Shown one piece after another: positions 12,704-26,239 of a stretch of DNA of 60,888 nucleotides (the stretch's first letter is position 1; each line of letters starts with the position of its first letter). The stretch is from a virus (lineage: Duplodnaviria > Caudoviricetes), in IMG/VR virus record IMGVR_UViG_3300012683_000002, positions 1-60,888 of that record; one strand, written 5' to 3'. The translations under genes and the position numbers were made by a program. A model generated the notes under the pieces. It saw only the letters and a list, made by a program, of their open reading frames with translations, did not search any database and had not been told where the DNA came from.

Positions 12704-13066
12704 ATGAATTGCGCCACTATTACGATTACTGACATCACGAAGCCCGCGCAGAGTTTGTATACGCTTCTTTCCGTAGGCTCGCAACCGGGATATACGGTAA
12801 GTCCTGCTGGCGGGATCTTCCCCGCAATCAGCATCATTGGATCGGTCAGTTACTTGTCTGTCCAAGCATCTCCTACTAATAGTACCCAGACAGTGTACAA
12901 GGGAGACGAAAACACGAAGACAGATGGGAGTTTGCAAGGCAAGGAAATGGCGGCGGGGAGCACGGATGTGATCCAAGCCTATCCGCATCAAGTTGACTTG
13001 AATACCACCTTCTTGAGAGCGAGCGCCAACGGAGCAAAAATCAATGTGGAAGTCCACTACGCTTAA
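12704..13066 (+). CDS. Small virion protein (beta-sandwich-like)
   Basis: RBS AGGAGG; lies in the structural operon. Confidence 0.6.
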   Translation: MNCATITITDITKPAQSLYTLLSVGSQPGYTVSPAGGIFPAISIIGSVSYLSVQASPTNSTQTVYKGDENTKTDGSLQGKEMAAGSTDVIQAYPHQVDLNTTFLRASANGAKINVEVHYA

Positions 13067-25000: not shown

Positions 25001-26239
25001 GGCTGCACAACCGGGATTCTCTATTCGGGTGCGATCAGCGTGGCTTCTACCGAGACGCTCAAAATCATCGCCGGTGGCACGAGCTATGTGGATAGTTCGA
25101 TTGCAACCTACGCTTACACTATCAACCCAGTAGCGGCTACGCCCTCGTGCTCCCCGGTCGCAGGCACATATGCCTCGCCACAGTCAGCGACCTGCACGGA
25201 TGCCTCTTCTGGGTCGATTATGTGTTACACGACAAACGGAGGCACGCCAGCCACGAATGGCACGAGCGGCTGTACGGCGGGAACTCTCTATTCGGGAGCT
25301 ATTTCTGTTGCGATTTCGGAGACCTTGAAAGTCATTGGCGGTGGCACTGGCTACACCGATGGTTCTGTCGCTTCCTACGCGTATGTGATTACGGTTCCGA
25401 CCGCAGCGGCCACACCTTCGTGCTCCCCGGTGGGCGCGACATACACTGTTTCACAGTCTGTAAGTTGCACGGACGCAAGTGCGGGAGCCGTGATGTGCTA
25501 TACCACGAACGGCACAACGCCTAGCACGAACGGAGTTAGCGGTTGCACGACAGGCACCTTATACTCGACCGCCATCTCGATTTCTACGACCCAAACGCTT
25601 AAAGTCATTGCAGGCGGGACAAGTTACCTCGACAGTCTGGTCGCGACGAACGCCTACGTGATTAGTCCTATCGCAGCCACGCCAGTTTGCTCTCCGATTG
25701 CCGGGTCGTATGCTTCGGCGCAGTCAGTGACGTGTACCGATGCGAGTTCCGGGGCGGTGATGTGCTTCACGACAAACGGCGCGACTCCGGCGACTAATTC
25801 AGTATCCGGGTGTACGACCGGGACGGTCTATAGTGGCGTGATCGCAGTCGCCTCGTCGCAGACCATTAAAATTATTGCTGGTGGAACGGGCTATACCGAT
25901 GGCACGGTGGCTTCTTACACCTATGTAATAAACGGGCAACCCGTCGCACCTGTAACCAGCTTATTTGCACGAGTCGTCAAGTGGAAGGGCGGAATACAGT
26001 TGACTTGGATTAAGCCCGTGCCGCAGCCGGATGTGAGCGTTAATTCCTATAGCGTGTGGCGCGGCTCGAATCCATTACTTCCAAATCCGAGCAAGATAGC
26101 GACCGTCATTCCAACTTCCTACTTCGATAAGCATTGTCGCGGGGTATGCTGTTATGAGGTCAGAGCTAACGACACGGTAGGAACCGTGCCGACAGCCGTG
26201 GTTAGTGGGCCGAGTAATATCGCGTGCGTAAGCAATTAG
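19013..26239 (+). CDS. 2408-aa signal-peptide-bearing adhesin/depolymerase: pectin-lyase-like beta-helix, ASH-like Ig domain, CBM5/12-like motifs, 8 Fn3-associated repeats, C-terminal FN3
   Basis: MRQLLAILALCGCCLVLPVSA|T signal; GATGNGSTNDTAA...LYFPSGTY (tailspike beta-helix start); LSFGSQVVG-type ...CSINVTFTPSATGTRSG (ASH); W.A...Y..GD.V motifs; tandem repeats at the C-terminus. Confidence 0.85.
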   Translation: MRQLLAILALCGCCLVLPVSATVWNVKTNCGATGNGSTNDTAAVNTCIGDLTSGDTLYFPSGTYLVSHLTTISALSNIVVYGDSQALSIIKGSASGVIWQIGAATLSTGTASVPSGNVLLASTSDLSSSFTVGSTFASTLSPGNLIYLWQGGADGNCSPSNTAQCDSGGQATAVGCEVDGCRSEVAKVASVSGTTVTVIRPLNNPYNPSVNLAGVAKINGVLAGINIHDLTFDGASTANVGLYLVGTDGLLVNNLTAKNTIGAGFSCGASGQTVCGWQPTISNITETATGSNGGFPSPGGSAFVVALTGYPTVSNVTLSSLNTNAFGVQLGMSGGAVMNNISVDKTGGTAGRGIKQSAGAHTVWNNVTVTNAPAGYECADVTYYSHHVTYIGGIFSGCNTIGIDGFGNFNDFLTLINVTMTVGANGSLVNFVPGASGLGRRDINTTVSGGTFSGTSGFEEIQAFGNNAYIHGATIGAGTNGINISSVATTGNCINNNTFVAGLGYAYAGSGSTGKANGNVFNGNSVTGAFVTGACATTFLPLSLGFGSQVVGSSSAAQAITLTNSTASSVTISEVTATGDYSQTNNCGTLASNASCSINVTFTPSATGTRSGYLLAYPTTTGGTATIPLSGNGSTSSCSMPNPCAYNGTDVVSWSTAPNLGNAINNGLTVFDTSFLGSGCAGGVCHNFDGSAFTNSSLLSPITRLTDSKSVPGVTNGTFVAGQGGSGVIVATNTNTSLVGFSGNGPEYVCLFNTATGHCSGIGTGIAIPTSFNNAGGGSANVGENFGSIFFSLTDPTVLYAFGNNTDVTLPTTVTPYSINTTTGKYTVGFPTKNASIVDFKYGLPLGAANAPNWQASHAYHYGDYVTHQLTSAEMARGTGIRAASTAYALGDIVTQNGTAGTCMYKVTVAGTSSSGAAPAFLASGCKLDTLSDGATLKWHGTASTAQFTYQNTGANGVLSNASVFQWIHSPVTLSTNTCSMPLNSAVLTCTNAPFTASMVGQTISVTGAGASGGVLYATILTFTSSTVVSLAFPATTAATTTSASLTGHPDLLSQVIDANGIVWTNVGTNYIPTLGSQAWAAAAGVSRDSSYPGTSYSGKYGMALSTNSYGDNYPNGGYSKYNSDQDTGIWALEYDAVTNIYHLLNTGTGIWTDWSCSGGTGYSCTGGTRTPSVIGTMTNIVNPAGVTPVTGITTQACPYYIHNEKMSKNGNHEVLTTHVVYPACNPLQNFEVWQPLTSVFPFDALNSLQITFFGLNHWDIGTDKIMAFSPGGWGSGSFLSIYDASKASTQANFSTFLKPNVNLSPPPYPEGCHTVSGTNPDCTLGNVLDSHLSVSGDHGNDLYPACGTTYNYKTLGPAINAWQNKETCYPVTPSFNSVQANSVNPVWQFSNDFNTHTSTTFSTQFSVSEYSQDAQWLFWSSDWNCGNGSTTGVAPSVWASGTHIGFLAVPAVPASPSSLCGLPWAAANTYVVGNLINPIEGTSGSGQVDDVFQAIYVNGKSGPQSSLSGFQPKCGTVSCFTATTAPTVSAAGSTLCDNQNYNGTTQLNTLNPALPYSTSCPNGNVWQDLGPQTGRGDVFAAKLTPTGGAPNLAATPVCSPGTGTYTTTQSVTCTDASVGAIMCFSTNGSTPATNGSTGCASGTLYSTAISVASSETLRVIAGGTGYLDSSIASYIYTINPVAATPVCSPVGGTYTSTQTVSCTDSSVGSIMCFTTNGSTPATNGTTGCTAGSVYFGSITVAISETLKVVAGGSGFTDGSVASYAYVINFPTAATPTFSPVAGTYNPTQSVTISTTSPGAILCWNTTGSPATNGITGCTTGTLYSGPVSVGVSETLYAVAGGSGYVDSSVGSAAYVIKLPAATPVCTPGTGSYTAAQSVTCTDSSSGAIMCYTTSGTTPATNGTSGCTAGTLYSGAIAISGSSTLKVIGGGTAYIDGPVGSFVYTINFPTIAATPSCSPVGGTYTSTQSVTCTDSSSGAVMCYTVNGSTPATNGSTGCTTGILYSGAISVASTETLKIIAGGTSYVDSSIATYAYTINPVAATPSCSPVAGTYASPQSATCTDASSGSIMCYTTNGGTPATNGTSGCTAGTLYSGAISVAISETLKVIGGGTGYTDGSVASYAYVITVPTAAATPSCSPVGATYTVSQSVSCTDASAGAVMCYTTNGTTPSTNGVSGCTTGTLYSTAISISTTQTLKVIAGGTSYLDSLVATNAYVISPIAATPVCSPIAGSYASAQSVTCTDASSGAVMCFTTNGATPATNSVSGCTTGTVYSGVIAVASSQTIKIIAGGTGYTDGTVASYTYVINGQPVAPVTSLFARVVKWKGGIQLTWIKPVPQPDVSVNSYSVWRGSNPLLPNPSKIATVIPTSYFDKHCRGVCCYEVRANDTVGTVPTAVVSGPSNIACVSN
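23792..25930 (+). repeat. Eight tandem ~89-aa chitobiase/Fn3-associated (CHB_HEX_C-like) repeats
   Basis: AATP(V/S/T)(C/F)(S/T)P.G.Y...QSV.C.D...IMC(F/Y)..NG.TP.TNG..GC..G.LY...I......LKV.AGG repeated eight times. Confidence 0.9.

Follow-up and report, generated by a model that had tools for sequence, protein, structure and literature searches.

Predicted export signals on four consecutive fibre-position proteins of a putative Acidobacteriota podophage, and their possible docking on virions at lysis

Tailed phages, including their fibres, are as a rule assembled in the cytoplasm. Known Sec-dependent phage proteins are the spanins, the signal-arrest-release (SAR) endolysins and pIII and pVIII of filamentous phages; none of these is a tailed-phage fibre or spike. 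Tail growth outside the cell is known from the Acidianus two-tailed virus. The solved tailspikes of Pam1 (7EEQ chain A), Pan3 (9VYG), P22 (gp9N; 2VNL, 8TVR) and Sf6 (gp14N; 7SG7) have a head-binding domain, an N-terminal beta-sandwich of about 100 amino acids (aa) that begins at residue 1 without a leader; a hinge and then a distal part that varies come after it. In phage SU10 the adaptor gp11 offers docks for fibres, and the gene order runs from gp11 over the fibres gp12/13 to the nozzle gp17; the accessible part of that article describes no signal peptide on the fibres (PMC9509320). Here we analyse the IMG/VR record IMGVR_UViG_3300012683_000002, a complete virus of 60,888 bp with direct terminal repeats, which in its whole length is the window of this study. 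Its late operon contains four consecutive open reading frames (ORFs), P0001 to P0004, which directly follow an adaptor-like gene, as the fibre genes of SU10 do, and each of which begins with a predicted signal peptide (leader). As in SU10 the nozzle gene lies farther downstream; unlike SU10, the window contains a second, paralogous adaptor gene, and a lysis cassette lies within the block.

The four ORFs (Table 1) are tightly coupled, with a gap of 2 nt followed by overlaps of 4 nt and 1 nt, and span 13,196 bp (21.7% of the genome). Leaders were scored with a crude heuristic, which looks for K/R, then an uncharged stretch with a mean Kyte-Doolittle hydropathy of at least 2.5, then a small-x-small motif; for the ORFs of the window a looser cut of 2.0 was used. 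In all four N-termini a basic n-region precedes an uncharged h-region, which has about 10-15 residues and lies within the first 25 aa, and a small-x-small c-region follows; the h-region scores of the four (3.1-3.7) are by this heuristic among the highest of the genome. The looser cut flagged eight of the 63 window ORFs: P0001 to P0004, the lipobox protein of the lysis cassette, a protein encoded on the minus strand (40667-41143), one antisense ORF and an upstream-extended capsid ORF. Besides the four, convincing leaders are found in the lipobox protein and in the minus-strand protein, which has 158 aa and a score of 3.44. The other virion genes of the window are leaderless by the heuristic. 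A leader of the capsid protein (9331-9396) was considered and rejected, since in relatives both the alignment and the ORF begin only at residue 18-21; from these alignments, the hydrophobic stretch with which the capsid ORF opens at 9331 is probably an untranslated upstream extension. Cys makes up 2.5% of P0001 to P0004 compared with 1.05% of the other ORFs of at least 200 aa, and the mature proteins contain 9, 12, 10 and 72 Cys respectively, mostly in close pairs. Past residue 35, none of the four has a 19-aa window with a hydropathy of at least 1.8.

An earlier note on this DNA, which had been made from the letters alone, described four ORFs of 879, 697, 412 and 2408 aa covering about 22% of the genome, with signal-like N-termini (SVYA/Q, TAHA/Q, SLAA/ and PVSA/T), many paired Cys and no membrane anchor. 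The coordinates, the heuristic, the Cys content and the hydropathy scan agree with this description in each point. The note had also allowed for true starts farther downstream; these were rejected in view of the tight coupling, of ribosome-binding sites that look acceptable in three of the genes and of the presence of leaders in all relatives. Among the domain types that it had named, the BNR propeller, the LamG domain, the pectate-lyase helix and the Ig-like domain were recovered, whereas a carbohydrate-binding module appeared only as a weak CBM_5_12 match.

Table 1. Positions of P0001 to P0004, their parts and the neighbouring late genes in the window (a slash marks the predicted cleavage site)
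Feature	Residues (aa)	Position	Strand	Remarks
P0001	879	13044-15683	+	open reading frame
P0001 leader	1-23	13044-13112	+	GSVYA/QFSS
P0001 'type A' Cys-bridged mini-domain	24-64	13113-13235	+	then Gly-rich linker
P0001 sialidase-like BNR propeller	101-394	13344-14225	+	BNR_2, 2w38
P0002	697	15685-17778	+	open reading frame
P0002 leader	1-18	15685-15738	+	VTAHA/QTNV
P0002 'type B' tailspike head-binding-like domain	19-132	15739-16080	+	contains Cys28 and Cys66
P0003	412	17775-19013	+	open reading frame
P0003 leader	1-22	17775-17840	+	SSLAA/GQVS
P0003 ConA/LamG-like lectin domain	225-392	18447-18950	+	Laminin_G_3
P0004	2408	19013-26239	+	open reading frame
P0004 leader	1-21	19013-19075	+	LPVSA/TVWN
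P0004 pectate-lyase-like beta-helix	25-284	19085-19864	+	PF12708
P0004 Ig-like domain	543-633	20639-20911	+	below Pfam cut-offs
P0004 CHB_HEX_C_1/Fn3_assoc repeats (about 8)	about 1565-2300	23705-25912	+	
Adaptor-like protein 1	354	11630-12694	+	directly upstream of P0001; no leader by heuristic
Holin candidate		26821-27165	+	one-transmembrane protein; lysis cassette
VanY/M15 endolysin		27174-27641	+	leaderless; lysis cassette
Spanin candidate		27651-28025	+	lipobox protein; lysis cassette
Adaptor-like protein 2	437	28673-29986	+	leaderless tail core
Nozzle-like protein	926	29986-32766	+	leaderless tail core
515-aa protein	515	32767-34314	+	leaderless; follows nozzle-like protein

Behind its leader P0001 continues with a small Cys-bridged domain (type A) and P0002 with a larger one (type B), and both recur in other phages. 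An alignment of type A domains from seven phages (A6) revealed invariant Q1, S4, P14, C18, G31, Y34, C36, T40 and W41, where Q1 is the predicted +1 residue and identical in all seven. A variable hydrophobic leader stands directly before the domain in 28/28 database homologues. The type B family comprises 3058 metagenome clusters at E ≤ 1e-3 and 1964 at E ≤ 1e-10. Leader statistics for its 149 best members (P0087-P0235) showed a domain start at residue 15-30 in 129, a hydrophobic leader in 145 and a small-x-small-Q motif in 111 sequences. The Gln behind the predicted cleavage site in these 111 leaders of an Acidobacteriota-phage family recalls the 'Q-rule', which was described for Bacteroidetes; the term 'Acidobacteri' does not occur in the accessible part of the mBio 2023 paper on that rule.

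The Cys pair of the type B domain follows the leader. Among 78 proteins examined, 42 were P0002 homologues with the N-domain. Both Cys are present in 31 of the 32 leader-bearing homologues and in none of the eight clearly leaderless ones (P0058, P0061-P0064, P0066, P0071 and P0080), which carry VA, AA, AC or CT at these positions. The other two rows are equivocal, since the gene call of P0036 is truncated and P0072 combines both Cys with the absence of a leader. When P0072 was entered as a counterexample, the association between leader and Cys pair gave a Fisher p of 8e-7, the rows being phylogenetically non-independent. Because the sequences are conserved from +1 onwards, because leaders run through the type B family and because the Cys pair tracks the leader, we take the leaders to be real export signals, and on this comparison P0001 to P0004 are likely to be exported through them. 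A type B subtype (QGHS...) keeps the leader and has Ser/Ala in place of both Cys; it was seen in P0088, P0096, P0099 and 25 others and also at locus L035 (12235-12558, minus strand).

Leaders in related phages are concentrated at the same place. In 26 related loci (L002-L027), the strict rule flagged eight of 259 ORFs of at least 150 aa; seven of them belong to the spike module, and the eighth is an adaptor ORF with an upstream extension. A leader is found on the first large gene in all seven close relatives that reach past adaptor 1 (L002, L003 and L005-L009; capsid 80-88% identical); in some cases it follows an internal Met of the mechanically called ORF. The complete relatives G001-G004 each encode several large leader-bearing proteins. 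G001 and G002 have blocks of 12-15 kb of leader-bearing genes which end in lysis genes, and G003 and G004, from a clade with 45% capsid identity, encode their large leader-bearing proteins downstream of the ejection-protein genes, where the structural operon ends. The type B protein of G004 is one of these, and its position is presumably that of the T7-type fibre. Among isolates, the podophages Tunturi 1 and 2, which infect Tunturiibacter psychrotolerans (Acidobacteriota), are nearest to the window. In Tunturi_1, gp12, gp14, gp16 and gp17 were flagged and a leader of gp13 was recognised by eye (score 2.43, below the cut), whereas gp11, gp20-22, gp30, gp31, gp33 and gp36 (tail core, endolysin and ejection proteins) were not flagged. 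Leaders on fibre-position genes, for which the earlier note had proposed a survey of related phages, were present in all relatives examined. A third N-terminal motif, recognised by eye only (about LNIP..G..NW....N.NF..LD), recurs behind leaders in L006 (from 13723), Tunturi_1 gp13 (L030), L028 (11648-12577) and P0040, and is possibly another type of anchor.

The fold of the P0002 N-domain was predicted with the domain modelled alone (mean predicted local distance difference test, pLDDT, 69; core about 85). The best match of this model was 7eeq_A, the 'Tailspike head-binding domain' of Pam1, with Z 8.7 over 86 aligned residues, which was the only chain at Z ≥ 8 among 48,161 chains. P22 gp9N and Pan3 reached Z 7.2 and Sf6 gp14N Z 6.7. 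Pam1 and Pan3 also made up the top three Foldseek matches (E 3-4e-3). Up to E 10, a search of the whole PDB with the type B profile A4 had two matches only, the 'Tail spike protein' of Pan3 at E 0.005 and 7eeq_A at E 0.52, and the AlphaFold model of full-length P0002 ranks the structural matches alike. The P0002 N-domain is thus best matched, as a model, by the podophage tailspike head-binding domains of the Pam1/Pan3/P22 gp9N type. With the solved tailspikes P0002 shares the N-terminal beta-sandwich of about 100 aa, the hinge, here of poly-Gly, and a distal part, which has 565 aa without an assigned family. It differs from them in that its domain stands behind a signal peptide; the identity between the N-domains is only 17-22%, and Pan3 lacks Cys66 (GA there), while the P0002 type has a conserved Cys pair.

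Between P0002 and its homologues the shared part, mostly the N-domain, amounts to 9-56% of the length; the N-domains stay conserved and the distal parts are swapped. Leaderless type B copies occur at the N-terminus of a 789-aa protein encoded after the tail genes in Pseudomonas phage KT1 and of the protein annotated as tail fiber in Oceanospirillum phage GJ44; scans of viral contigs with the leaderless P0058 and P0064 revealed no match. The domain was found in two of 301 Acidobacteriota genomes, on small contigs, and by its distribution among sequences the type B domain is phage-borne. Some proteins with leader and anchor (P0263) and one leaderless protein (P0066) end in Peptidase_S74 (PF13884), a chaperone domain of tail fibres and endosialidases that cleaves itself off. 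A complex prediction for nozzle residues 1-880 with the P0002 N-domain, run with a guessed partner and without controls, scored 0.01 against a mark of 0.32, a value that counts neither in favour of binding nor against it.

The remaining domains are of glycan-binding and glycan-cutting types. In P0001, BNR_2 scored 62.5 bits (cut-off 31.4), and aa 101-394 match the P. aeruginosa sialidase 2w38 (E 2e-17); no family was assigned to the C-terminal 485 aa, and a homologue search for P0001 detected five partial relatives only. The pectate-lyase-like part of P0004 scored 44.6 bits for PF12708 (cut-off 27) when aa 22-540 were scanned alone; a scan of the whole protein (E 0.01) gave no match. About 920 aa after the Ig-like domain and the C-terminal 110 aa of P0004 are without an assigned family. 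PHROGs offered no family for P0001 to P0004 or nine neighbours, with a weak terminase match for 19-1149 only. A PDB sequence search had no match for P0004, the full-length P0002 profile or the 515-aa protein, and its matches to the 437-aa and 926-aa proteins did not rise above noise. An origin of the module as a recent host-derived island was rejected, since only the Ig-like part of P0004 matches hosts: it was found in 25 of the 301 Acidobacteriota genomes (including G158, unpublished), and other parts of P0004 in none.

The plus-strand late operon fills the left half of the window. It starts with the terminase, which runs across the ends of the record, four glycosyltransferase genes, a portal-sized gene, a scaffold-like gene and the capsid gene. 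Then follow adaptor-like protein 1, P0001 to P0004, the lysis cassette (26821-28025), which closes the module, adaptor-like protein 2, the nozzle-sized protein, the 515-aa protein and ejection-protein-sized genes. Adaptor-like protein 1, whose true start is probably M17 at 11678, matches Tunturi_1 gp11 ('tail protein') in position. For both adaptor-like proteins the nearest Atlas clusters include SU10_adaptor (feature score 0.97, to be read as a lead only), with template modelling scores to these clusters of 0.90 for the 437-aa and 0.70-0.77 for the 354-aa protein; 16-82% of the members of the SU10_adaptor-like clusters carry PF24175, and a local Pfam scan found no adaptor match for either protein. 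The two paralogous genes stand on either side of the spike and lysis genes. Most members of the clade with 45% capsid identity have them next to each other, adaptor 1 directly before adaptor 2, and in L019, L023 and L027 one leader-bearing insert lies between them. The last 100 aa of the 515-aa protein align with the C-terminal end of Tunturi_1 gp31, which is longer (1307 aa), and by this alignment the 926-aa and 515-aa proteins together seem to be a split nozzle and not a fibre.

The four glycosyltransferase genes between terminase and portal (1900-5061) are consecutive and of GT1-type, GT2, PLOD-GT-like and GT2 type; the sets vary among relatives at this position. The cassette is a candidate source of sugars should the Ser/Thr-rich exported spikes be glycosylated. 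A profile search of genome contigs detected the P0002 N-domain on one small contig of a Terracidiphilus metagenome-assembled genome; we infer an Acidobacteriota host.

We propose that P0001 to P0004 would be exported by Sec, that signal peptidase I would cleave them (at A-x-A/Q in P0001 and P0002) and that they would fold in the periplasm with formation of disulfides. DNA-filled particles would meanwhile be completed in the cytoplasm from the leaderless portal, capsid, two adaptor-like, nozzle and ejection proteins. The products of the neighbouring holin, endolysin and spanin genes would then lyse the cell and the two compartments would merge. After lysis, P0002 with its head-binding-type domain would dock on the tail; P0001 with its small Cys-bridged domain would probably dock too, and P0003 and P0004 may ride on P0001/P0002 or, free in the periplasm or released, bind and cut glycans on their own. 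Late docking is physically plausible, since spike-less P22 heads reportedly accept tailspikes in vitro.

How much of this model holds differs between its parts. Export together with docking on the virion at lysis has, on the comparison of sequences, about an even chance; indirect evidence, mainly from P0002, suggests the docking. A fibre role is suggested by the gene order, since an SU10-adaptor-like gene directly precedes the module in the same way as the adaptor gene precedes the long fibres in SU10. That the four genes make up the host-recognition and glycan-cutting gear of a short-tailed Acidobacteriota phage, manufactured in a separate compartment, we hold to be just as open to doubt as to belief. 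Somewhat more tentatively, the Acidobacteriota podophage lineage to which Tunturi 1 and 2 belong may run a two-compartment assembly as a whole, with heads and tail cores made in the cytoplasm and the entire recognition apparatus exported by Sec. Such an assembly might further involve trimming to an N-terminal Gln, disulfides formed in the periplasm and docking on spike-less particles at lysis, details which we put forward with similar reserve; possibly the spikes would also be glycosylated in the periplasm by the four-glycosyltransferase cassette of the phage. The earlier note had read the module as exported, oxidatively folded in the periplasm and docked on particles at or after lysis. Its export and oxidative folding gain support from the comparison with relatives; the docking is backed only indirectly, mainly in the case of P0002.

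Several observations weigh against docking or against parts of the model. Generic beta-sandwiches reach Z 6-7.6 with the P0002 N-domain, so that its structural matches are moderate; Foldseek listed nothing at E ≤ 1e-3 for this domain, and the full-length model of P0002 is poor outside aa 20-130 (pLDDT 41). Since 28 of the 149 leader-bearing type B members lack the Cys pair, the rule linking the two is one-way and disulfides are not obligatory. Support for the leader-bearing spike family is comparative, and the text of the Tunturi paper contains neither 'signal peptide' nor 'mass spectrometry' in its accessible part (PMC11924767). P0003 and P0004 have no recognised anchor domain, and P0004 with its eight CHB_HEX_C repeats resembles a secreted bacterial glycanase. 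Pantoea stewartii WceF (6TGF), which ranks fourth in Foldseek for the P0002 N-domain, is a Tat-exported tailspike-like trimer with a P22-like head domain that does not belong to a virion, as far as the accessible part of the article tells (PMC7949094). Because WceF keeps such a domain outside the virion, an anchor-like domain behind a signal is no proof of docking.

These last points would fit a phage in which all four proteins are exported and never join the virion, being late periplasmic or released factors that evolved from tailspikes and cut or bind glycans in the manner of WceF. They might thin the capsule, exopolysaccharide (EPS) or lipopolysaccharide around the lysing cell for the escape of progeny, or destroy receptors. 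Sialidase-like, pectate-lyase-like, LamG and CHB_HEX_C domains are typical of secreted glycanases, and the module abuts the lysis cassette. Yet with this explanation the phage would be left without a fibre or spike candidate: because the 515-aa protein is read as part of a split nozzle, no leaderless fibre candidate remains in the window. The genes occupy fibre positions, conserved N-domains with swapped distal parts are the pattern expected of anchors with a conserved partner, and host genomes hardly ever contain the type B domain. In Cellulophaga phage phi18:3, moreover, leader-bearing proteins were, according to the record notes, identified in virions by tandem mass spectrometry (MS/MS). 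We consider a purely non-virion role of the four proteins rather unlikely.

Two further explanations appear much less probable. Exported proteins could be held at the envelope or in vesicles, outside the virion, as decoys or for superinfection exclusion or adhesion. Matrishin et al. take the Q-rule signals of Porphyromonas phages to serve the modification of the host outer membrane (PMC10367356, as stated in its accessible part). P0001 to P0004, however, have no later transmembrane segment, lipobox or recognised sorting tail; their genes are placed among late structural genes, no integrase was noticed, though no search was aimed at integrases, and 22% of the genome is invested in them. An envelope role is therefore improbable. 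Alternatively, the leaders might not serve the export of the virion pool, and the spikes might fold and dock in the cytoplasm, with the N-terminus having another role or being removed. Cytoplasmic assembly is after all the rule for tailed phages, and large, fast-folding trimers are poor Sec substrates. Folding in the cytoplasm is, however, hard to reconcile with the n/h/c pattern with A-x-A/Q and with conservation that sets in only after the leader; leaderless homologues, moreover, lack the Cys pair, and solved head-binding domains begin at the N-terminus without a leader. We rate cytoplasmic folding of these proteins as very improbable.

Export followed by docking at lysis would have consequences beyond this phage. 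The morphogenesis of tailed phages is taught as wholly cytoplasmic, and a route through Sec and the periplasm for receptor-binding parts would change that view; if it also holds for the Cellulophaga virion proteins, extracytoplasmic maturation of fibres would be a general and overlooked route in tailed phages of several phyla. Expression of such fibres for structures, host-range engineering or use as depolymerases would then need oxidising folding conditions and removal of the leader. Prediction of virion proteins in metagenomes would be affected as well, since a signal peptide currently counts as an indication that a gene is non-structural or a 'moron'. Export and late docking would also change the view of particle stability in acid soils and raise questions of timing, stoichiometry and loss at lysis. 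Judged by titles and the openings of abstracts, no paper on signal peptides of tail fibres or tailspikes was found, which suggests that spikes with export signals, maturation in the periplasm and docking at lysis are a route not described for tailed phages. The earlier note's word 'undescribed' stands in so far as no such paper came up; against it, the phi18:3 records already list leader-bearing virion proteins with MS/MS evidence.

Among the described systems, WceF resembles P0002 in combining an export signal with a P22-like head domain, and it is itself a trimeric beta-helix glycanase; it differs in its signal, which is Tat and not Sec, and in being encoded by a chromosomal gene of an EPS cluster, according to the accessible part of the article cited above, whereas P0001 to P0004 lie in a phage structural operon. 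In Porphyromonas phages, Matrishin et al. report Q-rule signal peptides on capsid, spanin and genes of unknown function (PMC10367356). These have Q at +1 as in P0001 and P0002, and the accessible part of that article lists none on tail parts. Closer in arrangement are the Cellulophaga phages phi18:3 (gp085-087; KC821620) and phi46:3 (gp079-083; KC821622) of the Pachyviridae, which have consecutive leader-bearing podophage proteins. The GenBank record notes call phi18:3 gp085-087 'structural protein' with 'experimental MS/MS proteomics', and RefSeq names relatives of the Cellulophaga leader-bearing proteins pectate lyase or tail fiber. Their host belongs to the Bacteroidota, the likeness to the window proteins noted here is one of leaders and annotation, and phi18:3 gp085-087 contain few Cys (0, 1 and 3), unlike the Cys-rich P0001 to P0004; their record is silent about processing of the N-termini. 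Tunturi 1 and 2 (PP887698, PP885685) differ from the window in their capsid, which is only 28% identical. They have the same gene order, with a lysis cassette closing the block; gp12 of Tunturi_1 carries the type B domain and shares with gp13, gp14, gp16 and gp17 the possession of a leader. As cultured Acidobacteriota podophages whose host is in culture too, they make the proposed export and docking directly testable.

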